A stretch of DNA of 64,000 bases from a plasmid: the sequence record NZ_CP096760.1. The stretch is one strand, 5' to 3'. A program made the position numbers and the translations under genes. The notes under the pieces were generated by a model, which was not told the DNA's origin, did not search any database, and saw only the letters and a list, made by a program, of their open reading frames with translations. Below, one piece after another: positions 1 through 47,861 of the stretch (position 1 is its first letter; every line of letters starts with the position of its first letter).

Positions 1-10
1 TAGCTTAAAA

Positions 11-328
11 GGTACAAAAATTCCGTTAAATCGCTTTTAACGGTACATTTTCTCCGTTAAAAGTCCTATAAAGGTACAAAAACTCCGAATAAGTACCTTT
101 TAAAGCCATTTTTCCATTAACTTAAAGAATACATAAAAGGATTTCGGTACATTTTCTCCGTTCACACCCCTATAAAGGTACATTTTCTCCGCTAAGCAAA
201 TAGCCAAAATCAAGATAACGGTACAAAAACTCCGATAGGGGAGTCATAACGGTACATTTTCTCCGTTTAAAAACCCTATAACGGTACAAAAATTCCGAAG
301 GAATGCATATAAAGGTACAAAAACTCCG
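11..328. repeat. Iteron array (origin): 9 copies of a 15-bp repeat in two alternating variants, GGTACAAAAA(T/C)TCCG and GGTACATTTTCTCCG
   Basis: Exact 15-mers at 11, 42, 73, 146, 177, 220, 251, 283 and 314. Several are preceded by CCTATAA(A/C). An AT-rich stretch follows, then the rep gene. Confidence 0.85.
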
Positions 329-469
329 GTAATGTCATTACATTGTCATGTTTTGGTCAAAATCCTTAAATATAAATCAGCTCAATTCCTGCTGGATAAC
401 TAGATTTACAAACATTATCTAATCATGTACCTTTTACGAAAACCAATAAAACCTTTCTGAACGGAATAT

Positions 470-1591
470 ATGGCAGAACTTATTAGGAATTCAGATGTTT
501 ATAAAGCGAATGCATTGATTAATGCAAGCTACGCTTTGGACACTGCTGAGCAAAGAATAATTCTACTCGCCATTTTAGTTTCCAGAAACAAGAATGCAGA
601 TCTGACTGCCGAAACGATTATCGAGATTCCTGCTTCCTTATATGCCCAAAAATTTAATACAACAGTGAGCGCGGCATATAAAACACTGAAGGAAGCCGAA
701 GATACCTTATTTGAAAGACGTTTTTCTTACACCACAATGCGAAATGGCAAGATTGAGGTGGTTCGGTCACGTTGGGTATCACGAGTTTCATACGTTAAGG
801 ATGATGCATTATTAACGATCACCCTAGCTCCTGATGTGATTCCTCTAGTAACCAAGCTAGAAGGAACCTTTACCAAATATGCCATCGACAATTTACGCGA
901 TGTGACCAGTAAATATGGCATCCGTCTGTATGAGTTGGTCGCTAGTTGGAAAAATTCGGATATACGTAAAACTCCTGTTTATGACTTCGAGGACTTCCGT
1001 GCCAAGATGGGCCTTCTTCCTCATGAGTATAGAGACAAGAAAAATCCCGAAAGTACGGATATGACCAACTTCAATAAACGTGTATTGAAGCCGGCAATTG
1101 ATCAGATTAATAGTTTTACTGACCTGTTTATTACTGAAAAGAAAATCAAGACAGGACGTAATATCACGGGCATTTATTTTGAAGTAAGTTTAAAAACCGA
1201 TAACTTCATTGAAGGCGAAGCGAAAGAAATCCATGACAGCAAGCCTTCTTCCGATTCAGCTAAAAAGACAGGCACTCCTTTAGAAAACATTAGGCTTCCA
1301 AAAGTATCGACCCAAGAGTTTTTGGGTAGTGATCTCAGCGAAGAGGACCTTAACAAAGAGAACCCATTAAAAGAATTTATCGTTGAATCTGGCGTTTATA
1401 AGTCTGCTATTGAAAAGCCAGTAGAAGAAAAGGATGAATTTGAATTAAATGGCATAAAACGATTGTATGAGGCTCTATTAAAGCTGGATGAAGGCGTAAC
1501 CAAGGAATACGTCCGCGAATATGCCCAGATTAAAGGCGTAACTCTACAACACGCATTAATTGAACTTTATAACTCTAAAAGACCGGCTTAA
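470..1591 (+). CDS. repB: Rep_3-family plasmid replication initiator (RepB-like)
   Basis: N-terminal ...KANALINASYALDTAEQRIILLAI... is typical of Rep_3 initiators. The gene lies directly downstream of the iterons. Confidence 0.8.
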   Translation: MAELIRNSDVYKANALINASYALDTAEQRIILLAILVSRNKNADLTAETIIEIPASLYAQKFNTTVSAAYKTLKEAEDTLFERRFSYTTMRNGKIEVVRSRWVSRVSYVKDDALLTITLAPDVIPLVTKLEGTFTKYAIDNLRDVTSKYGIRLYELVASWKNSDIRKTPVYDFEDFRAKMGLLPHEYRDKKNPESTDMTNFNKRVLKPAIDQINSFTDLFITEKKIKTGRNITGIYFEVSLKTDNFIEGEAKEIHDSKPSSDSAKKTGTPLENIRLPKVSTQEFLGSDLSEEDLNKENPLKEFIVESGVYKSAIEKPVEEKDEFELNGIKRLYEALLKLDEGVTKEYVREYAQIKGVTLQHALIELYNSKRPA

Positions 1592-1707
1592 ACATTCCGG
1601 CACTTGGGTCTTTTCCGAAAACTTGGGTTTTTGAAGTGCTAACGAATAATTAAATAATACTTTCTATAATATTTAAGTTTTTATATTAATTATTCGGAAA
1701 CGATCGG

Positions 1708-2439
1708 ATGTCCCAAGTTGAAAAACAAATACCCAAGTATTTAGATTGGGCGGGTCACTTTTATGGCAATGACCTTGATTTAGAACATTACGAAATTCTC
1801 ACCATTCAATACATTCCCAAGAAAGAGCGGAAGCTAGAAACGCAGTTAATGACAACCAAGTGGTTTGACTATAGGCTGATGCATCCCATGCAAGCCACTT
1901 ATTACTTCTTTCGGCTTTTCAAAAATGAATATCGAAACTTTTATAGAAAAGCTATTGATCATAAGGCGGCCGAATTCGTTAAACCCATTAAGGAGCGAGA
2001 TTTCTTACTCAGCCGTGAGGCCTTGTCATTTTGGCGACTCAGACAGGCAATTGATGCTTTGGGAATGCGTTATGACTTCTATTTAAAAACCGCATTTGAT
2101 AAATGCTTTAAGGTGATTGCGAATGGTAGACCTTTGCCACCTAGACCTGCTCAACTAAAAAAAGAAGAACTGTTAATTGAAGTGTTCCATGAGTGGGAGT
2201 CTTATTGTCAAGCTTCGCTCCAGATCGCTAAAAGTCCATATTTTACCGCTACACTTTTTCATAACAGTCCAATGCAAGTTGATTATGAAGATTTTATTGT
2301 TAAGCAGGTGCGGATGCGTCAAGTGCAGCATTATGCATTAGGGACATGCATTTATCGCTATGATGCACTTCGCATTGAAAAAGCTTTAGAGTCTTTTGAC
2401 ATTTCGATCATCAACCAAGCTATTAAATCCAGTATTTAA
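1708..2439 (+). CDS. hypothetical protein
   Basis: 243-aa ORF in a compact same-strand array. Confidence 0.5.
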   Translation: MSQVEKQIPKYLDWAGHFYGNDLDLEHYEILTIQYIPKKERKLETQLMTTKWFDYRLMHPMQATYYFFRLFKNEYRNFYRKAIDHKAAEFVKPIKERDFLLSREALSFWRLRQAIDALGMRYDFYLKTAFDKCFKVIANGRPLPPRPAQLKKEELLIEVFHEWESYCQASLQIAKSPYFTATLFHNSPMQVDYEDFIVKQVRMRQVQHYALGTCIYRYDALRIEKALESFDISIINQAIKSSI

Positions 2440-2458
2440 TGCTTTTTTCTCTTAAAAT

Positions 2459-2480
2459 ATTAATAAGCGCTTACTATAAT
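2459..2480 (+). promoter_or_regulatory. Conserved palindrome plus TATAAT promoter-like element
   Basis: TTAATAAGCGCTTACTATAAT upstream of the 2527 gene. Confidence 0.45.
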
Positions 2481-2526
2481 TTGATAATATCGTTTTTATA
2501 GTAATTACTAATGTTTCGAGGTTTTA

Positions 2527-2958
2527 ATGAGCGAATGGCAGAAAGAACTTGCGATACAAAACAAGTTCGGCAATAGCGCTCCAATTTCAAAGGAGTCTAT
2601 TTACTTAAATACGGAAGAAAAGCAAAAACTTCAATTTCAGCCGCGTAAAACGTATGGGCGTAGGCTGCCTGCGAACGAATGCGAAATTGAAGAAATGGGC
2701 TACATGAAGTTTGTTCGCAAGCTGCAAGAGCAAGAACAGGAAATTGTAGTCATTAAAACAGACGGCGAAGTTGTGCGTGGATACATCCGTGCTGCGGATG
2801 CAGAAACGATCTCGCTTCGTTGTTATTTGAATGGTGATAAAAACGGTCGTTATCGTGCGCGTGTTCTTTTCAAACACCAAATTTCCGAGTTCTCACCAAC
2901 TAAGGGGATTGAAGACCTAGTTGATGAGCTAGAGAGAAAGTCGAAATCTAAATCTTAA
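2527..2958 (+). CDS. hypothetical protein
   Basis: 143-aa ORF. Confidence 0.5.
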   Translation: MSEWQKELAIQNKFGNSAPISKESIYLNTEEKQKLQFQPRKTYGRRLPANECEIEEMGYMKFVRKLQEQEQEIVVIKTDGEVVRGYIRAADAETISLRCYLNGDKNGRYRARVLFKHQISEFSPTKGIEDLVDELERKSKSKS

Positions 2959-2994
2959 ACGTAAGCCATCTATTTTCTATAAGGATTATCTTAT

Positions 2995-4398
2995 ATGTCT
3001 ACTGCTGTGGCCGAAATTCATGAAGAAGAGGTCGTTGATAAAGAACTCGAAGGCTTCACCGAAGAAAAGTTTGATTACGACGATGAGTTTCAATCAAAAA
3101 TTGCGGCTTTAACTTTACGTGACGATGAGTTTCTTAGAAGAGCCGCCCATATTCTGAAGCCAGAATTTTTCGAAAATCAGGGTGAAGCATGTCTGGTCGA
3201 TATTGCGCTCCAACACTTCAATAAATATGGATGTTCTCCTGATCCTGCTTCTGTTGTCCAAATTATCAAGGATAAAGCTGCTTCTAAAGTTTATAAGCGA
3301 GAAACTTTAGCGGCAATTGTGGAAGCAAGGAAGAAATTAATTGGCATCTATGTCACTGACAAGGCTTTCGTTGAAGAAAAGGTTGTTGAGTTCGCGCGAA
3401 AACAGGCGGTATCCAATGCGATTGTTAATTCTGTTCCTGATCTTGAGGCAGGGAATTACGCCAAGATTGAAGCGCGTATCAAGGAAGCTATTGCGGTCGG
3501 ATTGAATGAAGAGGGTGTTGGTTATGACTTCTTCGCTCAGGCGTTGAATCGTAAGCTGGCACGTATCGAGAAGCTGACAGGCAAAGTACCTCCGACAGGC
3601 ATTACTACTGGCTGTAAAGAACTTGATGATCTGCTGTATCACAGAGGTTGGGGACGCAAGGAGCTGTCTCTATTAATGGGCGGTGCAAAAGCAGGTAAGA
3701 CGCAAGCGCTTATTCACTTTGGCCGTATCGCAAGCTTTGCTAAATACAACGTTCTATATGTAACGCTAGAAGTTGGTAAAGACATTATTGCAGACCGTTT
3801 AGATGCCTCTATTTCAAAAGTGATCATGAAAGAATTGGCGTCGAAGGCTGCAAGTGTTGCAACTGCGGTCGAGACGGTAGCCAAGACGGCGGGCAAATTT
3901 ATTATTCATGAATTTGGTTCCGGTACATTTTCTCCGTCACAGCTAAGAGCATTAATTGATAGGTATAAGAATCCTGGGCGGAACCCTGATGGAACGATAA
4001 GACCGCCAATCAAGTTCGATATGATCATTGTGGACTATGCAGATTTGATGCGTCCAGATATTCGTACAAATGACCCAAAAGAGAACTCAAGAGTTGTCTA
4101 TGTTGATTTACGCGCGATTGCTTTTGAAGAGAATGTGGCGTTACTGACAGCTACTCAGACCAACCGTGAGGGCTTTAAGTCAACGGTAGCCAAGGCAGAG
4201 CACGTAGCTGAGGACTTTAACAAAATCAGGACCGCTGACGTTGCAATCTCCATCAACATTACAGAGGAAGAGAGAGCGAAAGGTCAGGCTCGATTGTACT
4301 TTGCAGCTTCTCGAAACCAAGAGATGGGGGTTACTGTGGTGATTAAGCAGAATGTGTCCATGATGAGGTTCTTGGAAGAAGTGATTAGCGTCGAATAA
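2995..4398 (+). CDS. DnaB-family replicative DNA helicase
   Basis: Walker A GGAKAGKTQAL. The domain order is DnaB-like, with the C-terminal RecA-like ATPase. Confidence 0.8.
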   Translation: MSTAVAEIHEEEVVDKELEGFTEEKFDYDDEFQSKIAALTLRDDEFLRRAAHILKPEFFENQGEACLVDIALQHFNKYGCSPDPASVVQIIKDKAASKVYKRETLAAIVEARKKLIGIYVTDKAFVEEKVVEFARKQAVSNAIVNSVPDLEAGNYAKIEARIKEAIAVGLNEEGVGYDFFAQALNRKLARIEKLTGKVPPTGITTGCKELDDLLYHRGWGRKELSLLMGGAKAGKTQALIHFGRIASFAKYNVLYVTLEVGKDIIADRLDASISKVIMKELASKAASVATAVETVAKTAGKFIIHEFGSGTFSPSQLRALIDRYKNPGRNPDGTIRPPIKFDMIIVDYADLMRPDIRTNDPKENSRVVYVDLRAIAFEENVALLTATQTNREGFKSTVAKAEHVAEDFNKIRTADVAISINITEEERAKGQARLYFAASRNQEMGVTVVIKQNVSMMRFLEEVISVE

Positions 4399-4413
4399 AT
4401 TTAACCCAATATT

Positions 4414-4465
4414 ATAGTAAGCGCTTATTTATAAATTTGTGCTAGTATAAATAAGCGCTAATTTT
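4414..4465 (+). promoter_or_regulatory. Two tandem copies of the palindromic promoter-like element
   Basis: TATAGTAAGCGCTTATTTATAAAT and GTATAAATAAGCGCTAATTTTATC upstream of the primase gene. Confidence 0.4.
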
Positions 4466-4470
4466 ATCTA

Positions 4471-5580
4471 ATGCGATTTTGCAATATGAGCGATCAAGAA
4501 AGTTTAGCGGAGATATTAGACCGCATTGATATGGAGTATTGGCTTAACCGCGAAGGGTTTGAATACAAAGTAACTCGCGGAAAAAACGGAATCCAGTTGA
4601 ATGTTAAGGAATGTCCGGTATGTGGTAACTCAAGCTGGAAAGTCTATCTGAATCAGGATACGGGTTTGGGTAACTGCTTTCATGGTGATTGCGAAACCAA
4701 ATTCTCGAAATGGAAGTTTATTAAGGCTGGTATAGGCGGTAATAGCCTAAGCAATAAAGAGATAGTCGAGCATGTTAAAGCAATTGCTCAGGAGCAGGGC
4801 TGGCAGCCAAAGCGCAAAAGTGAACCCACACAAACCAAAATTGGCGATCTAAAGCTTCCAAAAGCCTATGACTTGCCGATCATGGGTCAGAACCTAAAGT
4901 ACCTTAAAGAGCGAAATATAACGCTCGATACGTGTCGTGAATTTGGACTGAAATTCTGTCAAAAGGGTTGGTTTGCATACATAGGCCCAACGGGTGAAAA
5001 GCAATACCAAAACTACAGCATGAGAATCATCATTCCTGTCAGGGACCTTGAAGGCAAGCTTGTGTCTTTTCAGGGTCGGGACATTACAGGAAAGGCTGAA
5101 AAGAAGTATCTATTTCCTCCTGGTTTCGCGTCTACGGGCACTTACCTATATAACGGCCATAATGCCCTAGGTTACGTTGAAATCGTCATGGGAGAGGGTG
5201 CTTTTGACGCTATGGCGATATATCAAGCCTTCAAGGAAGACGAGTTCCTTTGCAATGTTGGAGTTGTCGCGTCATTTGGTAAGCATCTTTCGGTAGGTGG
5301 TGATGAATCTCAAATGGCTGAACTACTAAAGCTTAAAGATGAGGGATTGGAGTGCGTGACGATTATGTGGGATGGAGAGCCTGCCGCAATTCTGTCTGCG
5401 ATCGACGCATGTTTAAAGATAAATAGCTTTGGCATAAAAGCAAGGTTGGCCACGTTGCCTGCTGGATGTGACCCCAATGAAGTCGACCCTGAAATCGTTC
5501 GCACAGCGTATCGAAAAGCGATACCAATTACGCCAATTAGCGCAGTAAGTTTACGCATTAAGTATATGGGTAAAGTCTGA
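4471..5580 (+). CDS. DNA primase (zinc-ribbon plus Toprim)
   Basis: CPVCGNSSWKV...CFHGDC zinc ribbon; Toprim-like IVMGEGAFDAMAIYQ and MWDGEPAA. The true start may be the internal Met at 4486. Confidence 0.75.
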   Translation: MRFCNMSDQESLAEILDRIDMEYWLNREGFEYKVTRGKNGIQLNVKECPVCGNSSWKVYLNQDTGLGNCFHGDCETKFSKWKFIKAGIGGNSLSNKEIVEHVKAIAQEQGWQPKRKSEPTQTKIGDLKLPKAYDLPIMGQNLKYLKERNITLDTCREFGLKFCQKGWFAYIGPTGEKQYQNYSMRIIIPVRDLEGKLVSFQGRDITGKAEKKYLFPPGFASTGTYLYNGHNALGYVEIVMGEGAFDAMAIYQAFKEDEFLCNVGVVASFGKHLSVGGDESQMAELLKLKDEGLECVTIMWDGEPAAILSAIDACLKINSFGIKARLATLPAGCDPNEVDPEIVRTAYRKAIPITPISAVSLRIKYMGKV

Positions 5581-5643
5581 ATCGTATTTGATTCCAAATC
5601 ATTGTTTTTAAAATATTGTTGAAGTTTTCAAGGTGCTTTTACT

Positions 5644-6198
5644 ATGAGTTTAAAAATTGTGGTCAGAAGTGCCTACTCATTGCATACGAGTGGGACAAAA
5701 TATTATTCGATGTTCTTGTTATCGGTACAGGACGGAGCTAAACGCAACACGCAATTATTCAAAATTTATGGCTCAGCGGTAAATCAAACCGCTCAAGTCA
5801 AACACCATCAAGAAGGTAATGGTGCAACTCTTGATACCGAATTTAATAAAACACTAAAAGTAAAAGGTAAAGCAGGTGAATATAGCGATTTACGTGAAAG
5901 CGAAATCTTGCACGAATTTGATAATTTCCATGATTTTATTACTTACTTGACTCTCGACTCTCAGATTAATGCCATTAGAGCGCCTTTCGCATCAGCGATT
6001 ACCGAAAAGGGTTTTGAAAAATACTTGGAAACCTTGTCTCAAACGTTCGGGATTCCAGTTGATGACATGTACAAATTTACATTCAACTATGAATCAGAGG
6101 AAGAACGGCAACGAAAACAAGAAGAGGAAGAGCGTAAGGCAGCTCAGCTCATGGCACAACGACAAGAATTTTATGGTGAAGTTTTGGGGTCTTGGTAA
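5644..6198 (+). CDS. hypothetical protein with C-terminal tail QEFYGEVLGSW
   Basis: 184-aa ORF with a charged ER/EQ-rich C-terminal region. Its stop overlaps the next start (TAATG). Confidence 0.55.
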   Translation: MSLKIVVRSAYSLHTSGTKYYSMFLLSVQDGAKRNTQLFKIYGSAVNQTAQVKHHQEGNGATLDTEFNKTLKVKGKAGEYSDLRESEILHEFDNFHDFITYLTLDSQINAIRAPFASAITEKGFEKYLETLSQTFGIPVDDMYKFTFNYESEEERQRKQEEEERKAAQLMAQRQEFYGEVLGSW

Positions 6199-6689
6199 TG
6201 AACAGAGTAATTATTGGGGTTCCACACTGTCGGTTTATGGTGACAAAAACCACAACGAATGAAAAGGTTTTGGAGCTCACAGAATATTTTGCTGTCCACA
6301 AGCATACTCAAGATGAAGTATTAGGCTTGGCGATCAAGGCTGTTGATTACCATGATAACAAGGGCGGGTATCACCGAACGGTCGAAATTCTTGAAAAATA
6401 CGAAGGACTTTCTTACTCAACAGTAGCAGAAAGGGTAAAGAATTTAAGTAAGGCTGCTGTACGTAATCTAGTTGATGAATTGTCTACCAATTCGGATTCG
6501 ATTAATCCAATTGAATATGCTCAATCAATTTTCGGTCGCGAAGCATCCAATATTTTTGACAAAGGGCGAGAAGCTGAGATCAAGTCAATTTTTCAAAATT
6601 ATTTTGGACCTATCAGAAGCGAACTGAGCGAATTAATTCTTGATACAGATGAGTATGCTGCCTATAAAGGAGTTCAAGGATCATGGTAA
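6198..6689 (+). CDS. hypothetical protein
   Basis: Start set to ATG 6198, which overlaps the upstream stop. The ORF track began at an upstream TTG. Confidence 0.5.
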   Translation: MNRVIIGVPHCRFMVTKTTTNEKVLELTEYFAVHKHTQDEVLGLAIKAVDYHDNKGGYHRTVEILEKYEGLSYSTVAERVKNLSKAAVRNLVDELSTNSDSINPIEYAQSIFGREASNIFDKGREAEIKSIFQNYFGPIRSELSELILDTDEYAAYKGVQGSW

Positions 6690-7291
6690 CTAAAACTCTT
6701 CCTGTACTCGATTTGGAATTATCCAGAAGCGGAACAAATGCCTATTACTGCGATTTTTGCCCTCATACTGGCAACCGTCCTAATTATGCTGCATGCCTAA
6801 AGCGTATCCATAATGTTCAGGAGGGAAATGAGCGCGAGGTGGATGCAGTTTGCGTAGTCGCTATCCACAGACATCACTGTGAAGCTGCCGAAATGCGTGA
6901 ACGTGAAATTGAGGCAGGTAAGGCTCTCTATTACATTGATCGTTCAGAAATGCGAAAACAAGTTGGGAAGCGGCTGGCTAAACAAGGAATTTCTATTTCT
7001 TCTAAATTTGATTATAAGTTAGAACTTACTAATATTAATGGTGAAAAACTAGATAAAGAAATTCCAGTTAATTCAAAGGGTAATTATTCATTAAGTGATG
7101 CAATCAATACTAAACTAAAGAAAAATAGTTTGAATACCAAAGATGATCATGTAGAATCGCAACAAGAAAATAAAGTAAGCGCTAACTTATATATCGAGAG
7201 TGAGAGCTTAACTGTACCAAGTATCGAGAGCGGATTATCGCTTTTAGAAATTGCTAACCGTTTCAAAGCAAACACACAGGAAAAATTATGA
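6683..7291 (+). CDS. hypothetical protein, Cys/His-rich N-terminus (possible zinc binding)
   Basis: CDFCPH...CLKRIHN...HRHHCE; ATGGTAA overlap with the upstream gene. Confidence 0.5.
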   Translation: MVTKTLPVLDLELSRSGTNAYYCDFCPHTGNRPNYAACLKRIHNVQEGNEREVDAVCVVAIHRHHCEAAEMREREIEAGKALYYIDRSEMRKQVGKRLAKQGISISSKFDYKLELTNINGEKLDKEIPVNSKGNYSLSDAINTKLKKNSLNTKDDHVESQQENKVSANLYIESESLTVPSIESGLSLLEIANRFKANTQEKL

Positions 7292-7797
7292 GCAACGCAG
7301 AAGATTTATTAGAAGCTTTAATCAAGGCATTAAAAGAGTCAAATGTAGATGCTGAGGAATTACGCTTCATGACTTTGCTTCCTGATCACATGCGCAAGAT
7401 TCAGGATTTAACCGAAGAGTTTGTAAAAGCTCACGTTAATGGTCCACAACAGCTTGAAGTTTACATGAGAGCCATTATGGGGGTGGTTGCACAGGTTCAA
7501 GCAGCATTAGTCGTGAATACCGGCACAGAATCAATTCAGGAATATGCACAATTATTGGCTCAAAAATCAGAAGATGAATATTTGCTTGATCTAGGTCACA
7601 TGCTTCGTGATTTTACCAATCATTGGCTAGCGGTCTTTCTGCAAGCTGCAAAAGAGCATTTCGGCGAAGAAGTATTTAAAGCTCATCAAGCCCATGTTAG
7701 AGAAGTGATTAAAAACGCTAAAAGCGAAATGCTGAAATCCAAAGAAGGCGATTCCCCATTTAAAGATTCATTTATTCCTTCATTTGCAAAGCAGTAA
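7288..7797 (+). CDS. hypothetical protein
   Basis: 169-aa ORF, 4-nt overlap with the upstream gene. Confidence 0.5.
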   Translation: MSNAEDLLEALIKALKESNVDAEELRFMTLLPDHMRKIQDLTEEFVKAHVNGPQQLEVYMRAIMGVVAQVQAALVVNTGTESIQEYAQLLAQKSEDEYLLDLGHMLRDFTNHWLAVFLQAAKEHFGEEVFKAHQAHVREVIKNAKSEMLKSKEGDSPFKDSFIPSFAKQ

Positions 7798-7809
7798 TAA
7801 GGTGTAGCA

Positions 7810-9513
7810 ATGAATAGCGATCAGTTACTAGAGGCTTTAAACCAAATTGCATCTGAAAGCTCAAAAAATGAAAAACTAGCTTTACTCATGGATTTTGAAG
7901 CAGAAAAGGGGTTGTTCAGAGAAGTTCTGCGTTTGGCATATGACCCGTTTATTGTCTTTGGAATTTTGCCAAAAGCAGAAGATGCAGGAACAGGGGAGTT
8001 AATGTTTGATGAGGTTGATACCCTTGAGTTCCTATCTAAGCTTAATAACCGTGAACTAACAGGCAATGCAGCGCGCGAAGCGCTGCGTAGCCAACTGGCT
8101 CAATTATCAGAGAAGTCAGGCGAGCTTTTAATTCGAATTTTAAGAAAAGATTTACGTGCAGGTTTTAGTGATGCAACGATCAACAAAGTCGTGCCTGATT
8201 TGATTCCTGTATTTCCATACCAACGCTGTTCATTGCCTAGTGAAGTAAAGCTGAAGGCATGGCCGTGGAAAGATGGCATTTATTTGCAAGAAAAAGCTGA
8301 TGGCATGTTTGCCAACGGGACCAATTTAGAAGAGAAGTTCTTCTTGTCCTCACGCCAGGGCACGCCGTTACCTATGGAGCATTTTTCCGACCTTACTGCG
8401 GAAATGAATATGCTGATCAAAGATGTCCAATATCATGGCGAACTACTTGTCGAGCGTGATGGTGTAGTTCTGCCGCGCAAGGTAGGAAATGGCATCTTGA
8501 ATTCGGTCACAAAGGGTGGCTCATTTGCTGAAAATGAAAAACCGATCTATATGATTTGGGACTTCATTCCGCTTAGCTCTGTTAAGTCAAAGGGAAAATT
8601 TGAAGCAGCATATAAACGCCGTATTGCACTGATTAAATCGATGCTGGCCAAGTTTAAGCCTAAGTATGTGCGGCTGATTGATACGCATGTTGTCCACTCA
8701 TTGAGCGAGACTTACGATCACTTCTTTAATGTACTTATGCAGGGCAAAGAGGGGCTGGTAATCAAGCATCCAGAAGGTCACTGGAGAGACGGTACAAGTA
8801 AACACCAAGTTAAATTAAAACTTGATGCGGATTGTGAGCTGGAGGTCGTGAGCATTAATCCGGGTAAGGTGGGTTCAAAGAACCAAGGGAGAGCTGGAGC
8901 TTTGCATTGTAAATCTGCATGTGGTCAAGTCATTGTGGATGTCGCCATCAAGAATGAAAAAATGCGCGACGAGGTGGATGCAAACCCTAGTGACTGGATT
9001 GGTCGAATAATCACTGTGCGTTCAAATGCCATTATGCGTCCATCCAACAGTAACCAGAATTACTCGTTGTATTTGCCGCGTATGGTTGAGGACTGCTATC
9101 GAATCGATAAAACGGAAGCTGATGATTTAAAACGTATTGAAGAGCAATTCAAAAACGCTATCGAAGCTGCCAAGAAGCTGGCAGAAAGTGAAGCGGTGGT
9201 GGTAGCGAGAGCAGCGTCTGTATCCTCAGCTCGTCCTTCGACATCTTTTGCGCGGTCTTACAGCAGCTCGTCCACACGCGCTCCGACCACTACAAGTTTT
9301 CGTTCTAGTCCAGTTAAGACCGTGACAAAACCTAGTACGATTCGTTCTGTGAAGCCTGTTACAACGCCTGCTAAACCGATGCCTGTTTCTTCTTCATCTA
9401 CACAGAAGAAATCGCGTAAGATTGGTTTCCAATATGATTACTATGCATTTACAGATTGCATCCCTTATTCAAGCGGAAGTTTCCAAGGTTGGAAGTGTAT
9501 TGATCGGGATTAA
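7810..9513 (+). CDS. ATP-dependent DNA ligase with Ser/Thr/Pro-rich C-terminal extension
   Basis: Adenylation motif EKADGMF, motif IV EGLVIK, KLKLD. C-terminal about 90 aa are low-complexity S/T/P. Confidence 0.75.
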   Translation: MNSDQLLEALNQIASESSKNEKLALLMDFEAEKGLFREVLRLAYDPFIVFGILPKAEDAGTGELMFDEVDTLEFLSKLNNRELTGNAAREALRSQLAQLSEKSGELLIRILRKDLRAGFSDATINKVVPDLIPVFPYQRCSLPSEVKLKAWPWKDGIYLQEKADGMFANGTNLEEKFFLSSRQGTPLPMEHFSDLTAEMNMLIKDVQYHGELLVERDGVVLPRKVGNGILNSVTKGGSFAENEKPIYMIWDFIPLSSVKSKGKFEAAYKRRIALIKSMLAKFKPKYVRLIDTHVVHSLSETYDHFFNVLMQGKEGLVIKHPEGHWRDGTSKHQVKLKLDADCELEVVSINPGKVGSKNQGRAGALHCKSACGQVIVDVAIKNEKMRDEVDANPSDWIGRIITVRSNAIMRPSNSNQNYSLYLPRMVEDCYRIDKTEADDLKRIEEQFKNAIEAAKKLAESEAVVVARAASVSSARPSTSFARSYSSSSTRAPTTTSFRSSPVKTVTKPSTIRSVKPVTTPAKPMPVSSSSTQKKSRKIGFQYDYYAFTDCIPYSSGSFQGWKCIDRD

Positions 9514-9546
9514 TTGGGGCGGTTCTACCGCCTCTTCTTATGAGGT

Positions 9547-10125: not shown

Positions 10126-10163
10126 GCATTTTGATGAACAATTAAAATTTCCTAAAATAGAAT

Positions 10164-38420: not shown

Positions 38421-38443
38421 AACTTTTTTAATTTAGGCGCAAA

Positions 38444-38467
38444 TATTAGTAAGCGCTTACTATAATT
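38444..38467 (+). promoter_or_regulatory. Palindromic promoter-like element (consensus copy)
   Basis: ATATTAGTAAGCGCTTACTATAAT, followed by the stem-loop GGGATGAA-AAG-TTCATCCC. Confidence 0.5.
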
Positions 38468-38499
38468 ATAGGGATGAAAAGTTCATCCCTATTTTATTT

Positions 38500-39507: not shown

Positions 39508-39519
39508 GGAGGAACTAAA

Positions 39520-40431
39520 TTGCAAATTACTAATTTCGACCTCGTACACCTCATTGATAAAGCAATTGAGGAAGGTCAAATCAAAGTAAAAATCTTGGCA
39601 GACAGCATCAATGAATACGGCGATCGCCTTGTCACCTTTGAGCTTATGTATTGGTTACCAATACATGCCGAAATGATGACTCATCGTGTATTCAGCCGTA
39701 ATGCCGCATCTAACCGCGCCATTCCTATTTCAAAGATCATTCAGCAAGTCTGGAACAATCCGGCATATCCAATCTTTTGGGGCAAAAACAAGGCTGGCAT
39801 GCAAGCGAATGAACAGTTTTCAAAACGCAAGATTCGCTTGTGCCGATTTGCATGGAAATGGTCAGGTCGCCTGATGTGCGGTGTTGTATGGTCCTTAATG
39901 AAATTAGGACTGCACAAGCAAACGGCCAACCGCTTATTGATGCCTTGGCAATTTATGCATGTGGTTCTTAGCTCTACGGAAATGGATAACTTTTTCGATC
40001 TCCGTATCCATGAGGACGCACAGTTCGAAATCTTCGCTGTTGCTTATCTCATTGAAAAAGCAATGCGTACTTCAACACCTAAAAAGCTCAAATTTGGTGA
40101 ATGGCACTTGCCATATATCACAGACGAGGAACGGAAGCAGCACAAAATCGAGGTATTAAAAAAGGTATCTGGTGCCCGTTGTTGCCGCGTCTCTTTCATG
40201 AACCATTACGGCAATAAATCAAATGTTGGTGAAGATTTAAAACTTTGCGAACGCTTGGTCGGAGCTGAACCTTTGCATGCTTCACCTTTTGAGCACCAAG
40301 CAACACCTGACAGCTTTGATCACCGCACGGAAAAGTATGCCAACCCAACAATGCACGGAAATCTAAAAGGCTGGTTACAACATCGCAAATTCATTGAAGC
40401 AGAAATCTTCTTATCGAAAAACAAGGAGTAA
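39520..40431 (+). CDS. thyX: Flavin-dependent thymidylate synthase
   Basis: ThyX-like THRVFSRNAASNRA; TTG start with a strong AAGGAGG RBS. Confidence 0.7.
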   Translation: MQITNFDLVHLIDKAIEEGQIKVKILADSINEYGDRLVTFELMYWLPIHAEMMTHRVFSRNAASNRAIPISKIIQQVWNNPAYPIFWGKNKAGMQANEQFSKRKIRLCRFAWKWSGRLMCGVVWSLMKLGLHKQTANRLLMPWQFMHVVLSSTEMDNFFDLRIHEDAQFEIFAVAYLIEKAMRTSTPKKLKFGEWHLPYITDEERKQHKIEVLKKVSGARCCRVSFMNHYGNKSNVGEDLKLCERLVGAEPLHASPFEHQATPDSFDHRTEKYANPTMHGNLKGWLQHRKFIEAEIFLSKNKE

Positions 40432-40434
40432 GTC

Positions 40435-40719
40435 ATGAATATTTTTGGAATCGGACAAAGTAAAGCTACCGAACATCTTGAAGAAAAAGTTGGCATGGGC
40501 CAAGTCAAGCCTAAAACAGTTCGCCATATCACGGCTGATCTTGAGCAAAAGCTGAGTGAGCTTTTCGATTTAGAAGAGCGCCTGTTAGAGGACAACGATG
40601 TTCAAAATGAATTAATTCGATCCGCTACAACTCGCATTGAAGATAACAATGTCGAAATTGCGCGCGCTATCAAAACACGAAAAGCATTAACGGAAGTCTT
40701 TCAGGAGATGAACGGGTAA
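40435..40719 (+). CDS. hypothetical protein
   Basis: 94-aa ORF. Confidence 0.45.
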   Translation: MNIFGIGQSKATEHLEEKVGMGQVKPKTVRHITADLEQKLSELFDLEERLLEDNDVQNELIRSATTRIEDNNVEIARAIKTRKALTEVFQEMNG

Positions 40720-40946
40720 TGAGTAAAACGAAGGTAAATCCTAAGTGGTTCAGACATGAGGCATTACATACATCTTATGTCCTTTTAAGCATGGTGAATG
40801 ACCACCTGACTAGGCATCAGTATTACCTAGAGCGCATCAATCCTGAATTTAATCGCCACATTGATGCCGCAATTGAGCATTTGACCGCAGCTTATCAAGC
40901 CGCAGGTAATGAAGGCCTTGAGGTCAAAAAGAAAATAAAAGTCTAA
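40719..40946 (+). CDS. hypothetical protein
   Basis: 75-aa ORF. Confidence 0.45.
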   Translation: MSKTKVNPKWFRHEALHTSYVLLSMVNDHLTRHQYYLERINPEFNRHIDAAIEHLTAAYQAAGNEGLEVKKKIKV

Positions 40947-40976
40947 ACCGTCTATGTCATTAACAGGAGATAGCAC

Positions 40977-41234
40977 ATGACTATGACTAACGAACAGATC
41001 GAAATGGAAATTAACAACCTTAAGAGCCAATTGACTCAAAAGGCTGATGTTGCTTCCGTTAATACTCTTGCTAATCGCGTTACAAATGTTGAAAACACTA
41101 ACGCTAGTCAAAGCACCTCAATTTCAACTTTGACAAGCCGCATGAATAATGCAGAAGGAGTGAATGTCACTCAAGGCAATTCAATCAATAGCTTGAATTC
41201 GCGTGTAACTAACTTGGAGAACAAAGTTGGCTGA
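40977..41234 (+). CDS. small protein with three tandem repeats of about 19 aa (coiled-coil-like)
   Basis: VNTLANRVTNVEN / ISTLTSRMNNAEG / INSLNSRVTNLEN. Confidence 0.5.
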   Translation: MTMTNEQIEMEINNLKSQLTQKADVASVNTLANRVTNVENTNASQSTSISTLTSRMNNAEGVNVTQGNSINSLNSRVTNLENKVG

Positions 41235-41592
41235 TCAAATCATTTTTAGCGAAATGGTCACGGCTTTGGTGAAAAAAGGTCAGGACATCCTGAATGATAT
41301 GACACCAGAGCAAGCCGATTTACTTCACATGGGTGTCGGTGTTTCAGGTGAATCTGGTGAACTTCTTGACGCAATCAAGAAACATGCAATTTACGGCAAA
41401 CCGCTAGATCGTGAAAACGTGATTGAAGAACTTGGTGATTTAGAGTTCTACATGGAACGTATTCGCCAAATCATCGGGGTAAGCCGTGAGGAAACGATTG
41501 CGGCGAATATGGCAAAATTGGGTAAGCGCTATAGCAAAGGCACTTATTCAAATGAGCAAGCCCAAGCTCGTGCGGATAAGGTGGAAGCATGA
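41227..41592 (+). CDS. mazG: MazG-like nucleotide pyrophosphohydrolase
   Basis: EELGDLEFYMERIRQ motif. Confidence 0.7.
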   Translation: MADQIIFSEMVTALVKKGQDILNDMTPEQADLLHMGVGVSGESGELLDAIKKHAIYGKPLDRENVIEELGDLEFYMERIRQIIGVSREETIAANMAKLGKRYSKGTYSNEQAQARADKVEA

Positions 41593-42260
41593 TTTTTGCA
41601 TTATGTGGCAGTCATAGAACCGGCAAGACTACTTTGGCTCAAGAATTTGCCAGAGTTTCAGGGGCAAAATTTATCCCTATGTCGATTACTAGATTGCAAA
41701 AGGAAATTGGCTTTAATTCAGCTAATCAGAGCTATAGCTTTGATGAGCGAATGAAAGTTCAGGAACACCTCATTGAGCGCCTGAATGACATTTATGAAGC
41801 CAATTACCACATCGATGCAGTAGCGGATCGCTCCCCTATTGATCTTATGGCATATGCGTTGATACATGCTGGACCTGATATTACTGAGGAACAGTCTAAG
41901 CGTCTTATGCGCTATATCGACCGCTGTGCGCAGGTAGCACGAGATCACTGTATCGGCATCTTGCTGGTTCAGCCGGGCATCGAACTTAAAGAGGATGAAA
42001 AATCTGCACCCGCCGCTTTAGGGTTTATTGAACATCTAAATTCGCTTATTTTGGGTCTGATTAATGATGAACGAGTAAACGAAGTACCGATGTTTTATAT
42101 CCCAAGAAATGTGACCAATTTAAAACGTCGAGTTGCCGTATGTTCAGACGCATTGGCCCGTTCAATGTTACGAAATATGGATAATGATCGTGTCTTTAAC
42201 TGGAACAGTTCGGAAAGTGGTTTTAATGCATACTTCACCCCTTCAAGTCTCCCGCAATAA
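41589..42260 (+). CDS. P-loop nucleotide/nucleoside kinase-like protein
   Basis: Walker A CGSHRTGKTTLAQ. Confidence 0.55.
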   Translation: MIFALCGSHRTGKTTLAQEFARVSGAKFIPMSITRLQKEIGFNSANQSYSFDERMKVQEHLIERLNDIYEANYHIDAVADRSPIDLMAYALIHAGPDITEEQSKRLMRYIDRCAQVARDHCIGILLVQPGIELKEDEKSAPAALGFIEHLNSLILGLINDERVNEVPMFYIPRNVTNLKRRVAVCSDALARSMLRNMDNDRVFNWNSSESGFNAYFTPSSLPQ

Positions 42261-42819: not shown

Positions 42820-42922
42820 ATATTTCAGGAATATAAATATATATCCCTGAAATATCCTTATTTATCAATGCTATATTTCAAAACGAAAGTTAAATAACTG
42901 CTTATATTTCGGAGTGTTAGCT

Positions 42923-43462
42923 ATGATTCCATATATTCTTGGAGTCGATACTGAAACGACAGGGCTAGAAGTAGATAATGGCGACAAGATTATTGAAATC
43001 GCTCTCATTAAATATGACTTGGACGGCGCAAAGCTAGAGGAATTCGTACAGCGAATTGATCCTGAACGAAACATTGATCCAAAAGCTCAAGCGGTGCATG
43101 GCATTTCCTATTCAGACCTTATCGGTTGTCCAAAATTTGTAGATATAGCAGAAGAAGTTGCCTCAATCGTAAATCACGCCTCTTTGTTAGTGGCTCATAA
43201 CTTTGCATTTGATGGCCCTTTTATCGCAACTGAACTGAAACGTGCAGGCATGACGCCTAAGAAAGTTTCTTCTTTCTGCACGATGGAATATGGCCGTTGG
43301 GCAACGTTTGATGGCAAATACCCAAAGTTAGCAGATTTGTGTTTTTCGTTAGGCGTTGAATATGACGCATTAGCAGCACACGCTGCATCGTATGACGTAG
43401 ACGTGATGATGCAGTGCTTCTTTAAGGCAAGAGAGCGAGGTTTCTTTCAGGTGGAAGTATGA
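42923..43462 (+). CDS. dnaQ: DnaQ-like 3'-5' exonuclease (DEDD family)
   Basis: ILGVDTETTGL (Exo I), HNFAFDGPF (Exo II), YDVDVM (Exo III). Start moved to ATG 42923, which has a GGAG RBS. Confidence 0.8.
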   Translation: MIPYILGVDTETTGLEVDNGDKIIEIALIKYDLDGAKLEEFVQRIDPERNIDPKAQAVHGISYSDLIGCPKFVDIAEEVASIVNHASLLVAHNFAFDGPFIATELKRAGMTPKKVSSFCTMEYGRWATFDGKYPKLADLCFSLGVEYDALAAHAASYDVDVMMQCFFKARERGFFQVEV

Positions 43463-44752: not shown

Positions 44753-45535
44753 TTGGATATGAAAATTTTATTGATGAATGACTCAAGTGTGACAACCGTT
44801 AGAAAAACACATGAGGCTTTAAAAGGTAGAAAACTCATTGCAAGTGGCATGTTTTCAGGTGTCTTTGAAAGCGGAAATCCCAATACCGTTCTTAAATTGA
44901 CTGTCTGTCCAGCCACTTATTACATGCTTAACGACGAAGCAATTAAGATTGATGACATTCACTCACCTAAATTAATCAAAAACTATGGCCAAGTTGGTGA
45001 ATACCTGGTTGGCAAGAATGTGAAAGAAACAAACCTCACAAAACCAAATAAAAAATTAGTTCCATTATTTCTGTTTGAAGTAGAGCGCCTTGAGAAGATT
45101 TCAAAAGGTCCTAATCGCAGCCTTGCCTTAAACCTTACATATGAATTGCGCCGCCGTCTTGCAGGGTTAGAGCACGGTATAAGTGTTCGAGGTGCCACAG
45201 CTAAAATTCTCATTGAAATGGCAAATCAGCTTCCTCAACTGAAGGACGTTCCTACCCTTCTACCTTACTTCGAAAAACTAAATAATTTCGTAGGCAGTTA
45301 CGGTGATGCGTTTTATGACATCCATGCGGCAAATCTAATGCAACGTAGTGATGGAACCATTGTTTTTTCAGATCCAGTTGGCTCAATTGATATTTACACT
45401 TCCGGGCATGGCGAATTTAAACCGATCGTTAGCCTTTCGGACGTGAAGTGGACCGACGTCAAAGACCGACACCGTAAAGAGTTCCAAGCGCTTATTAATA
45501 AAATCAAACCCAATCAGAAAGCATTGAATGCCTAA
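44753..45535 (+). CDS. hypothetical protein with protein-kinase/APH-like motifs
   Basis: Gly-rich GMFSGVFESG then VLKL; catalytic-loop-like DIHAANLM; SDP in the DFG position. Confidence 0.4.
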   Translation: MDMKILLMNDSSVTTVRKTHEALKGRKLIASGMFSGVFESGNPNTVLKLTVCPATYYMLNDEAIKIDDIHSPKLIKNYGQVGEYLVGKNVKETNLTKPNKKLVPLFLFEVERLEKISKGPNRSLALNLTYELRRRLAGLEHGISVRGATAKILIEMANQLPQLKDVPTLLPYFEKLNNFVGSYGDAFYDIHAANLMQRSDGTIVFSDPVGSIDIYTSGHGEFKPIVSLSDVKWTDVKDRHRKEFQALINKIKPNQKALNA

Positions 45536-46032: not shown

Positions 46033-46044
46033 AGGAGAAAAATA

Positions 46045-46557
46045 ATGGCGCGTTACTTTGACATGTTTAGCAAAGAGATTTCTAAGGAAGAATATGAAAA
46101 GTTACGTGCCCATTTTGAGGAAGTTTTTAGAAAGCATGCCGAAAACGAACCAGACACTTTGCCGCTAAACATGTTTTCGGTGCGCGAATTTCAAAATGAA
46201 AACCTATGTGTGCAATTAATATGGCTCGGCGAAATCAGCGACAAGATAGTTTCCAGCCACTACAAGTCACAATATCCTATCTTTAAAATTGCGATCTTAA
46301 ATAAACGGAATGATGACCGATGGTATGAAGAACCTTTATCCAAGACGCACAACCGGCGGTCATCAGCCGATGCGGAATACGAAGACATCCTCTTGAAATA
46401 CTCCAAATGTTATTACGATGAAGAAGGTAACTTTACCTATAGTGAGGACAATCTTTCCAAGTGCATTCATGAACAAATTACGGTCGAGGGACTAATAGAA
46501 GAAAATCTCCCGTCAATTACCTTCAAACCGAAGACCAATTTCGATTCAGTGTGGTAA
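46045..46557 (+). CDS. hypothetical protein
   Basis: 170-aa ORF. Confidence 0.5.
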   Translation: MARYFDMFSKEISKEEYEKLRAHFEEVFRKHAENEPDTLPLNMFSVREFQNENLCVQLIWLGEISDKIVSSHYKSQYPIFKIAILNKRNDDRWYEEPLSKTHNRRSSADAEYEDILLKYSKCYYDEEGNFTYSEDNLSKCIHEQITVEGLIEENLPSITFKPKTNFDSVW

Positions 46558-46689
46558 CACACTGAATCTTATTATTTTACTTTACCTACAACATCGCCAT
46601 CATTTCGCTTCTTATCCACACGGCGCTCAATAAACTACATACAGCAGCAAGAAAACTGCAATAACTTCAACTAATAAAGGTATGTAAGT

Positions 46690-47553
46690 ATGAACGCAAA
46701 AGCTACTAATCAAGTAAAAGATGATGAATTACTTATATCTAATCTTTTTGATCAACTTGATATTGATGAATCAGAACTCGACATGGCTTTAGAGCCAACA
46801 GCCGAATCTGCTGCTGTTCAAGATGAAAAGCTAATCGATGAAGAGTTGCATGATGTTGAGTTATTAGACGACTTAAATAACACTGAACTTGAAACACTCA
46901 TTAATGATGAAGAATTAGATTTAAGCCTTGAAGCAGAAGAAGTTGAAAATTCTGTTGTTTCAGATAAGAAAGTTACAGAGCCTGAGAAGTTAAAAACTGA
47001 GAATGTAACTGAAAAACAAGTACCTAAATCTACACAGCAACGTGTAACGCACTACAACTCTAAGAAGTCGGAAGTTTTACTAGACCGTCTAGGCGGTAGT
47101 GCAGACATGATTCTTCTTGAAGCGAGTGATATTGATTTACCAAATGACAAGCTTAAAGAAAAACAAGAAAACCTGTTACGTATCCTGAACAACCAACCGA
47201 CGGTAATTGGTACACGAGGTAATGTTGAGACAGTTCAAAAGAAAGTAGCTGAGAAGGTCATTATCTTGTTCACCTATTTCAAGAACGGTGGAAACTTAAA
47301 TAAGGTCATGAGAATCGCATTTGAGACGATTATTACAGATGGTTATATTACAACTGGTAAAGGTGGCAATCTATATAACAACCTGTTGAATGCACATTAC
47401 TCAGAAGGTACAGCGCGAGCGCAGGCGGGACAGATGCTCCAAATGTTCCCCCTATTGAAAATTGCAACAAAAGAAGGAAATAAGCTAATTCCAAATGAGC
47501 AGTCGCTAATTTTAGCCAAGATGAAAGCTGATCTCTTTCCAAGTGAAAAGTAA
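46690..47553 (+). CDS. hypothetical protein, acidic N-terminal half
   Basis: 287-aa ORF. Confidence 0.5.
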   Translation: MNAKATNQVKDDELLISNLFDQLDIDESELDMALEPTAESAAVQDEKLIDEELHDVELLDDLNNTELETLINDEELDLSLEAEEVENSVVSDKKVTEPEKLKTENVTEKQVPKSTQQRVTHYNSKKSEVLLDRLGGSADMILLEASDIDLPNDKLKEKQENLLRILNNQPTVIGTRGNVETVQKKVAEKVIILFTYFKNGGNLNKVMRIAFETIITDGYITTGKGGNLYNNLLNAHYSEGTARAQAGQMLQMFPLLKIATKEGNKLIPNEQSLILAKMKADLFPSEK

Positions 47554-47570
47554 TAGAAAAAAGCGGTAAA

Positions 47571-47599
47571 AAGGGAGTGTCAAACTCCCTTTATTTTTG
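47571..47599 (+). terminator. Intrinsic terminator
   Basis: AGGGAGT-GTCAA-ACTCCCT then TTATTTTTG. Confidence 0.6.
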
Positions 47600-47727
47600 C
47601 CTATGTCAAAAACACTATTTTCCTGCTTCTAATTTGCGCGCTAATTACGTTAAAAAAATTTTTATAAAGAAACACTCACGCTGAAAATAAAATTAAATCT
47701 AGCGCTTTACAACGCAAAATAGCACTT

Positions 47728-47825
47728 CTTATATATAAGCGCTTACTTATAAATATTGTTATACTCTTTTAAAAATATAAAACAGTAGATAGAATCCATA
47801 TTATTAGTTATCGCTTACTATATAT
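47728..47825 (+). promoter_or_regulatory. Two palindromic promoter-like elements just upstream of the IS insertion
   Basis: CTTATATATAAGCGCTTACTTATAAAT and ATTATTAGTTATCGCTTACTATATAT. Confidence 0.4.
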
Positions 47826-47861
47826 TTCCAGATAATTACATTTACTATTCACTCAACACTG

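Follow-up and report, generated by a model that had tools for sequence, protein, structure and literature searches.

Plasmid maintenance genes joined to an SSU5-like DNA-metabolism arm: a probable AB_1-type phage-plasmid of Acinetobacter

Does the plasmid stretch studied here, a window of 64,000 nucleotides from record NZ_CP096760.1, hold a new kind of chimera between a plasmid and a T4-like phage, or a member of a family already known? The original prediction had treated positions 1-47861 as one contiguous block in which plasmid maintenance genes stand beside a T4-like replication, recombination and late-transcription core, and had considered a P1-style plasmid prophage of this composition unusual. 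We found the mixture of plasmid and "T4-like" genes to be real, but it is the normal design of a family that has already been published, that of the Acinetobacter plasmid pABTJ2 and the AB_1 phage-plasmids. Our reading, to which we give a probability of roughly 0.9, is that window positions 1-47860 and 61927-64000 are the maintenance and DNA-metabolism arm of an approximately 110-kb AB_1-type (pABTJ2-like, R3-T3/GR24) Acinetobacter phage-plasmid and, as part of the same joint reading and held just as firmly, that the element is temperate, siphovirus-type and distantly related to Salmonella phage SSU5.

Searching PLSDB with the 25-kb slice at window positions 14001-39000 (megablast) returned 78 plasmids, all from Acinetobacter and most about 104-118 kb long; 51 of the 78 were at least 90% identical over the 25 kb, with ZW85p2 (NC_023031) at 99.0%. 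For window positions 1-14000, each of the 25 best-matching plasmids had at least 98.5% nucleotide identity, and almost all fell in the same size range of about 104-118 kb. In public data, at least 1000 contigs encode exactly the Rep protein of the window, and at least 1000 exactly its sigma protein. With a published family, 78 matching plasmids and a Rep protein this widespread, the view of the element as unusual has to be given up. One record, NZ_CP033864, was 100% identical to window positions 1-39000 in the stretches searched; it is a linear record of 68,135 bp, in which window position 1 corresponds to position 14788. The nearest complete relative is the circular, 116,047-bp NZ_CP038645 (the plasmid of A. 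baumannii ACN21), with 99.0-99.9% identity over the whole window. A megablast search of 50,697 phage genomes with the 25 kb gave no match, and at the DNA level the family is absent from phage collections.

Gene calls were checked by profile scans with Pfam, PHROGs and NCBIfam. As predicted, these scans found no virion, packaging or lysis gene in positions 1-47861, and the suggestion that they make up half of a larger genome was borne out by NZ_CP038645, which has the virion genes elsewhere on the replicon. The part of this plasmid that the window does not cover encodes lysozyme, a tail protein of 3727 aa, a protein for tail assembly, a C40 peptidase, minor tail protein L, tail genes of the gpL/K/I type, a tape measure, an HK97-gp10-type protein, major capsid, portal, large terminase, two ParB-family proteins and a DEAD-box helicase. 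In NZ_CP033864, the genes for lysozyme and the 3727-aa tail protein lie directly upstream of the position where the window begins. The presence of this virion arm on a circular relative of 99% identity supports the phage-plasmid reading. The right-hand end of the predicted block did not hold: an insertion sequence (IS) of the IS5 family lies there, and the backbone resumes at about 61927.

The family has appeared in the literature under several names. pABTJ2 (Huang 2014; 110,967 bp) was described as a plasmid "carrying many phage-like elements", with SSU5-like structural genes, a 373-aa Rep_3 replicase adjoining iterons, a tRNA-Asn(GTT), nrdAB and a polymerase gene (PMC4411360). Pfeifer 2021 defined an Acinetobacter-specific "AB" group of phage-plasmids of about 110 kb (AB-g1, n = 19; AB-g2, n = 5), whose phage and recombination genes tie it to the SSU5 supercommunity (PMC7969092). 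The mean weighted gene repertoire relatedness (wGRR) between AB and the SSU5 supergroup was 0.08 in that study (PMC7969092), which makes AB a relative of the supergroup, not a member. In tyPPing 2026, AB_1 is a siphovirus-type group of 101-122 kb in which 94 protein families are conserved, and its key example is given as "SSU5 (distant)" (PMC12977533). Replicon type R3-T3/GR24 accounts for 45 of 621 typed A. baumannii plasmids (Lam et al., PMC9927589). Our link to pABTJ2 rests on its published description together with family members such as ZW85p2.

The comparison with SSU5 accounts for the core that had been called T4-like. By tblastn against SSU5 positions 25-75 kb, 19 of the 51 window open reading frames (ORFs) had collinear homologues, with 21-51% identity. 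The shared order runs from a homologue of SSU5_038 through DnaB, primase, ligase, CobT, MoxR, a DnaE with a uracil-DNA glycosylase (UDG)-like end, a gp32-like single-stranded DNA-binding protein (SSB), a flap endonuclease (FEN), RecA, SbcD, SbcC, RuvC, NrdA and NrdB to an AAA ATPase; ParA has a match as well. Among phages, the closest homologues of the DnaE were in siphoviruses of 105-120 kb (Rhizobium RHEph10-type, SSU5-type, Stenotrophomonas and Xanthomonas phages), and the gp32-like SSB matched by tblastn 24 phage records, of these same types and Pseudomonas phage nickie, none of them T4-like. GC content was uniform over the block. Collinear with SSU5 and with none of its nearest phages T4-like, the core cannot keep its original label; judged by gene order and protein similarity, the architecture is old and conserved, not the product of recent grafting, and "T4-like" here means SSU5-like.

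The genes of the replication, recombination and nucleotide modules were as follows:
2995-4398, plus: DnaB-like helicase (DnaB_C profile; 38% identity to SSU5_039)
4471-5580, plus: DnaG-type primase (profile; 40% identity to SSU5_040)
7810-9513, plus: ATP-dependent DNA ligase (profile)
9547-10125, plus: guanylate kinase (profile)
14723-16645, plus: CobT-like von Willebrand factor A (VWA) protein (profile; 34% identity to SSU5_049)
16790-18034, plus: MoxR/CbbQ AAA+ ATPase (profile; 38% identity to SSU5_050, in the same order as in SSU5)
25065-25925, plus: gp32-family zinc SSB (PF08804, 52.7 bits, cutoff 26.8)
25940-27025, plus: 5'-3' exonuclease/FEN of the PolA type (profile)
30854-31969 and 31969-33909, plus: SbcD (phrog_100) and SbcC (phrog_77)
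within 30854-35572, plus: 278-aa unknown protein, between SbcC and the RuvC-like resolvase
34958-35572, plus: RuvC-like resolvase (profile)
within 36048-42260, plus: nucleotide-supply genes NrdA and NrdB (profile)
39520-40431, plus: ThyX-type thymidylate synthase (profile)
41227-41592, plus: MazG (profile)
41589-42260, plus: AAA ATPase (profile; gene intact in the window)
42914-43462, plus: stand-alone DnaQ-family 3'-5' exonuclease (TIGR00573, 72.5 bits, cutoff 71.5)

Taken singly, most of the predicted assignments agreed with the profile searches: SbcCD, FEN and the DnaB and primase pair were recovered, the stand-alone DnaQ-like exonuclease scored above its cutoff, and the gp32-like zinc SSB passed with nearly twice the required score. 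This SSB has an H-x-C-x8-C-x2-C zinc-ligand motif and an acidic C-terminal tail. In the SbcD-SbcC-RuvC block the identities to the SSU5 homologues were 37%, 40% and 43%, with conserved order. In none of the window ORFs did the profile scans detect a clamp or clamp-loader domain, so the element probably uses the host beta clamp. Further along, a 260-aa protein (44753-45535) had a weak match to phrog_15752, a phage protein kinase family (E = 3.3e-7).

The protein that had been likened to gp55, the late sigma factor of T4, lies between the MoxR/CbbQ ATPase and the polymerase:
18059-18724, plus: divergent sigma-70-family factor, 221 aa (Sigma70_r2, 17.9 bits, cutoff 24)

The protein is a sigma factor, as predicted, and belongs to the sigma-70 family; a particular likeness to gp55 is possible but was not upheld. 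It has a sigma-2 fold of the sigma-70 type that is no closer to gp55 than to the extracytoplasmic function (ECF) sigma factors. Against T4 gp55, hhalign gave a probability of 22%, and BLASTP an E value of 4e-4 over 44 aa of a generic region-2 segment. Searches of PDB sequences, with the single sequence and with a profile, gave nothing relevant; tblastn of phage genomes gave no match at E <= 0.01, and there were only 9 homologues among 5.8 billion proteins. The T4 late-promoter motif TATAAATA had 8 matches where 3.9 were expected, with no clear enrichment. A near-identical variant of the sigma protein occurs on 950 contigs, the longest of 4.55 Mb, which could reflect occasional chromosomal integration or an assembly artefact.

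The polymerase and RecA depart from the simple forms first assumed for them, and a 362-aa protein lies between the polymerase and the SSB:
19501-21858, plus: N-terminal DnaE piece, 785 aa (PHP, palm, fingers), aligning with E. coli DnaE 223-740
21907-22482, plus: free-standing homing endonuclease (NUMOD4 and HNH), splitting dnaE
22479-23744, plus: C-terminal DnaE piece, 421 aa (end of the fingers, helix-hairpin-helix, UDG-like domain), from about position 734 of E. coli DnaE
23834-24922, plus: 362-aa protein, acidic in its N-terminal half, whose C-terminal domain has a UvsY-like fold
27022-29226, plus: RecA, 734 aa (PF00154), holding a 360-aa intein with a LAGLIDADG endonuclease at nucleotides 27685-28764

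The polymerase is indeed of the DnaE family, but it is not the single gene that had been supposed: two pieces are separated by the HNH gene, whose stop codon overlaps the start of the second piece (ATGA, 22479-22482). About 20 codons separate the split from the FNKSHS motif downstream of it. The cassette, 881 bp in place of 96 bp, brings with it both the stop codon for the first piece and the start codon for the second. Split dnaE is in this sense an intein-less "gene in pieces". The cassette was present in 30 of the 78 backbone plasmids. Among relatives linked through the sigma protein, dnaE is unsplit (1148 aa) in L006 and L008 and split in L007. L007 and L008 have an identical sigma protein. 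Well ahead of the insertion their DNA agrees at about 100%, over the 400 bp leading up to it identity falls to 57-71%, and beyond it the value is 98.6%; from its sequence pattern, this drop is a typical co-conversion tract. We also considered a split intein at this site and rejected it: the 42-aa tail and 11-aa head are too short, catalytic Cys and HN residues are missing, and Pfam gave no intein match. At the C-terminus of the polymerase (about aa 240-421 of the 421-aa piece), a family-4 UDG-like domain replaces the oligonucleotide-binding (OB) and tau-binding region. The same fusion is found in the single-ORF DnaE of SSU5 and in the unsplit 1148-aa relatives. Since motif A of this domain reads SDCPT where GEAPG is usual, catalytic activity is doubtful.

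The bacterial-type RecA that had been predicted in the place of UvsX was confirmed by PF00154, and an intein was found in it besides. RecA reaches 734 aa because of this 360-aa insertion. The intein has Cys1, a block B TxxH, a C-terminal HN and a +1 Cys (CLRAE...TNDH...VHN, then C), the features of class 1, and by these motifs it is intact. It is inserted between FGDPT and TPGGS, where L008 and SSU5 have the uninterrupted FGDPTTTPGGS; RecA is an intein-less protein of 373 aa in L007 and L008, and that of SSU5 likewise has no intein. Intein DNA was found in 33 of the 78 backbone plasmids.

Judged by its fold, the 362-aa protein between DnaE and the SSB is probably UvsY-like, an assignment that sequence methods did not support; the hhalign alignment to UvsY places ALRDRNDMLIQRG opposite UvsY ALKARLDYYSGRG. 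As a candidate beta clamp (a "dnaN" was reported for pABTJ2), the same protein was ruled out because it is all-helical. The HNH-split dnaE with its UDG-like fusion, the RecA intein, the UvsY-like fold and the palindrome treated below may all be undescribed.

A short palindrome recurs through the arm:
2461-47820, plus: palindrome TAGTAAGCGCTTACTA, 15 copies with at most 3 mismatches and an extended consensus of ATTAT-core-TAAT, starting at 2461, 4415, 7173, 14646, 16687, 17069, 24936, 30528, 30825, 35590, 35615, 38447, 42283, 42800 and 47805

These 15 matches compare with 0.19 expected. Thirteen of them fall in the intergenic 10% of the block (P = 8.6e-12), and for most of the sites a start codon follows 13-113 nt downstream. 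None was found around rep or in the interval of 7.3-14.6 kb that holds the ligase, gmk, the parA operon, the recombinase and the XRE gene. Fourteen more are present elsewhere on the replicon, as represented by NZ_CP038645, some of them ahead of the lysis cassette and of the genes for tail, major capsid, portal, terminase and ParB, others in the backbone just past the cargo, for a total of about 29, mostly intergenic. The 3' edge of the 24-bp extended palindrome reads TATAAT in gene orientation, and the sites show no conserved -35 element. Relatives have a palindrome in the same gaps with both half-sites co-varied, as TAAGTAAGTACTTACTTA in L006 and as AAGTCAGCGCTGACTT followed by ATAAT in L008, and SSU5 has palindromes at equivalent intergenic positions (AAGTAATCACTTACT and GGTAAGTACTTATCT). 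Palindrome-related sequences also lie in the XRE control region (window 13975-13992 and 14066-14090), in L006 as well. A full-text literature search for the motif gave no relevant paper.

From this placement we infer that the palindromes are lytic promoters in which the binding site of one dimeric regulator overlaps the -10 box. By analogy, this part could fall to the XRE repressor, as it does to C1 in P1, or to an Lpa-like activator. In P1, C1 operators are scattered and late promoters combine a -10 box with an upstream inverted repeat; the layout of the palindromes resembles both. The sites may also act as RNA hairpins. Assigning the palindrome to the sigma factor was judged unlikely, given that SSU5 has a similar motif and no detectable sigma homologue, which is weak evidence. 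We would advance only tentatively, as somewhat less probable than its negation, the wider proposal that the palindromes form a promoter/operator network, undescribed so far and spanning the genome, by which a single dimeric regulator would switch the entire AB/SSU5-type lytic programme, alongside the element's own sigma factor, a UvsY-like mediator working with RecA, and a two-piece DnaE.

The plasmid side of the arm comprises the following features:
11-328, plus: oriV iteron array, nine exact direct copies of GGTACAWWWWNTCCG in two flavours (AAAAN / TTTTC)
470-1591, plus: Rep_3 initiator (RepM), 373 aa (Rep3_N, E = 4.8e-29; Rep3_C, E = 1.1e-15; RefSeq repM)
3922-3936, plus: isolated exact iteron inside the dnaB-like gene, 3.6 kb from the origin array
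10806-12026, minus: partition operon (ParA, 11231-11908; 142-aa downstream partner, 10806-11234; repeats, 11995-12018)
12523-13143, minus: short tyrosine recombinase, 206 aa, catalytic domain only (Phage_integrase, E = 1.4e-26)
13447-13866, minus: XRE/HTH_3 regulator in an immunity-type region (13447-14482) with a divergent control region of about 420 bp
14288-14482, plus: 64-aa ORF opposite the XRE gene across the divergent control region

Here the original gene calls held: the initiator has both Rep3_N and Rep3_C profiles and adjoins nine exact iterons, ParA matches its profile and has a small partner (of no recognised family), the tyrosine recombinase is as short as had been stated, and the XRE regulator has the HTH_3 profile and the divergent control region. 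In length and family the initiator equals the Rep of pABTJ2 (PMC4411360). The iteron GGTACAWWWWNTCCG has 10 matches in the window where 0.16 would be expected, nine of them in the array and one at 3922. In NZ_CP033864 the array goes on beyond the window start with at least six more copies of degenerate sequence (14557-14775), so that the origin array is larger than the nine window copies; the pABTJ2 paper reported four 22-bp repeats only (PMC4411360). The isolated iteron inside the dnaB-like gene could be a handcuffing or titration site. A 143-aa protein between rep and that gene (2527-2958) showed a weak Hfq/Sm-like match (21.1 bits, cutoff 27).

The promoter region of parA has two tandem copies of a 12-bp repeat, TAGATTTCTAYA (11995-12018), which recurs past the cargo at 62032-62043 and 62497-62528, with 8 matches in all against 0.89 expected, and forms a cluster in NZ_CP038645 (segment L003, 17760-18389). 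These repeats are candidate centromere or operator sites of the partition system. The best partial matches of the recombinase were XerA, XerC, XerD and Fim-type invertases, all far under their cutoffs; from its position and family it would be a multimer-resolution enzyme. The XRE regulator has an HTH_3 domain only, and the profile scan found no S24 self-cleavage/peptidase domain in it. A regulator of this build would fit the reported failure of mitomycin C and ultraviolet (UV) light to induce pABTJ2. An Rfam scan of the window found a tRNA only, and no P1 c4-type antisense RNA or intron.

The rest of the window is occupied by cargo and by the resumed backbone:
47861-61926: cargo island, outside the backbone, bracketed by an IS5-family element (47861-48899) and an inverted IS5-family relative (60880-61926)
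61927-64000, plus: backbone, with tRNA-Asn(GTT) at 62109-62184

Position 47861 is the inverted-repeat end of the first of the two IS5-family elements, which are 79% identical and in inverted orientation. The 12 kb between them encode a TetR regulator, an alkene reductase, an alcohol dehydrogenase and formaldehyde-detoxification genes, all of which occur on many non-phage Acinetobacter plasmids. At the same site ZW85p2 has a type I restriction-modification system instead; of the IS it has (15345-15510) just two ends of about 80 bp, a remnant like a miniature inverted-repeat transposable element (MITE), with a full copy nearby. A second cargo hotspot is the AAA ATPase gene (window 41589-42260), where ZW85p2 carries sul2, tet(B) and IS1008 (62421-67979) and the ACN21 plasmid a phosphoethanolamine-lipid A transferase with IS1008 (NZ_CP038645 43730-46314). 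The authors of pABTJ2 explained its tRNA-Asn as a chromosomal fragment gained by faulty excision (PMC4411360). SSU5 also has a tRNA-Asn (segment L010, 17525-17596), and being shared in this way the gene looks like an ancestral part of the element and not a chromosomal pick-up.

Gene identity and architecture were observed directly; the roles in the following scheme are those we infer from them. In the carrier state, the element would replicate from its iteron origin by means of the Rep_3 initiator, be partitioned by ParA and its small partner acting on the 12-bp repeats, and have its multimers resolved by the short tyrosine recombinase, with the lytic genes kept silent by the XRE-type regulator. 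On induction it would assemble a replisome of its own from the DnaB-like helicase, primase, two-piece DnaE-UDG, DnaQ-like proofreader, gp32-type SSB, FEN and ligase. RecA, after intein splicing, would serve recombination-dependent replication and repair together with the UvsY-like mediator, SbcCD and RuvC, and NrdAB, ThyX, guanylate kinase and MazG would supply dNTPs. The divergent sigma factor would be expressed at this stage, and the 24-bp palindrome/TATAAT module shared by both arms would place them under one dimeric regulator.

Several points weigh against a temperate AB_1-type phage-plasmid. The record 100% identical to the window is linear and incomplete, and circularity and the full virion module are seen in relatives only; the roles proposed for the XRE regulator, sigma factor, recombinase and palindrome derive from position and family; treatment of pABTJ2 with mitomycin C or UV produced no visible lysis (PMC4411360); and AB is the sole phage-plasmid group without a known phage (PMC7969092). 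The last two points, like an XRE regulator without an S24 domain and a backbone broken by cargo islands and IS elements, would equally be expected of a domesticated or defective plasmid that has kept phage genes and lost the cycle, its replication and recombination genes serving plasmid fitness only. We consider this unlikely. The relatives of about 110 kb retain a complete, collinear module of head, tail, terminase and lysis genes, 94 protein families are conserved in AB_1 (PMC12977533), and the promoter-associated palindrome is kept at lytic genes in both arms. The recent presence/absence polymorphism of endonuclease and intein, with its co-conversion tract, implies co-residence and exchange between elements, and failure of SOS induction is what one would see if an antirepressor or another signal were the trigger.

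A recent chimera, made by adding to a plasmid a T4-like (Straboviridae) core for replication, recombination and late transcription, could draw on the gp32-family SSB, the SbcCD nuclease of gp46-47 type, the UvsY-like fold and the weak BLASTP similarity of the sigma factor to gp55 (E = 4e-4, 44 aa). It is nonetheless very improbable: the whole arm is collinear with SSU5, the 24 phage matches of the SSB include none that is T4-like, the polymerase is DnaE and the RecA bacterial-type, neither a gp45 clamp nor a gp44/62 loader was found, TATAAATA is not clearly enriched, GC is even, and in structure the sigma factor lies nearer the ECF factors than gp55. Least credible of all is a prophage or island integrated in a chromosome, with remnants of rep and par and terminal att duplications, the state of affairs that the original prediction had named as its own refutation. 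For it one could cite the single member of the sigma cluster on a 4.55-Mb contig and the tRNA-Asn gene within the element. All 78 PLSDB matches are plasmids, though, the nearest complete one circular; Rep, ParA and the iterons are intact, with rep and par intact across the 78 plasmid records and no chromosomal att flanks seen in any of them; the apparent right boundary is an IS insertion, and backbone flanks the cargo to the left and right; and a tRNA-Asn common to SSU5 is an element gene and not an att remnant.

If the window is the arm of an AB_1-type phage-plasmid, the headline of a plasmid-phage chimera adds little, having been in the literature since 2014 and 2021. The family is clinically relevant, being among the commonest large plasmid types in A. 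baumannii and carrying resistance and other cargo at defined hotspots, and AB is the only major phage-plasmid group still without a demonstrated virion. The palindrome, the element-specific sigma factor and the S24-less XRE regulator are handles on how, or whether, such elements are induced, and the split DnaE and RecA intein are clean natural invasions of replication genes by homing elements in a plasmid-borne phage.

Compared with known systems, the arm shares with T4 a gp32-family SSB, SbcCD (gp47/gp46), FEN, a DnaB-family helicase with primase, a probable UvsY-like fold, NrdAB and homing endonucleases within replication genes; it differs in having DnaE and not the family-B gp43, RecA (PF00154) and not UvsX, a sigma factor not demonstrably gp55, no detected gp45, gp44/62, gp33 or gp59, and no clear TATAAATA late-promoter signal. 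Of the label P1-style, the analogy of lifestyle stands, that of a plasmid prophage kept at low copy number, with iterons for replication, a partition system and a tyrosine recombinase, while the Rep_3 initiator, the siphovirus/lambda-type tail genes in place of contractile ones and the element's own DnaE replisome set it apart. The endonuclease ORF between co-oriented halves of an essential replication gene recalls the "genes in pieces" known from Aeh1 nrdA and the "fractured genes" of Dassa 2009 (step Ia; PMC2677866), except that split-intein halves are absent here and the host gene is a phage-plasmid dnaE. With the SSU5 supergroup (pHCM2, pMT1, pKpn, pSLy3) the element shares lysis followed by the gene order from ParA to the AAA ATPase, the tRNA-Asn and an analogous palindrome. 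It differs in that SSU5 positions 25-75 kb hold no detectable homologue of Rep_3, the tyrosine recombinase, XRE, the DnaQ-like exonuclease or ThyX, nor of the sigma factor (for which whole phage genomes were also searched), and in that SSU5 has an unsplit DnaE and a RecA without intein. Closest are pABTJ2 and AB_1: the window copy differs from them in its IS5-bracketed 12-kb cargo, where others have a type I restriction-modification system, and agrees with them in Acinetobacter host, 373-aa Rep_3 with iterons, tRNA-Asn(GTT), nrdAB and polymerase gene, and in complete relatives of about 110 kb that carry SSU5-like virion genes.

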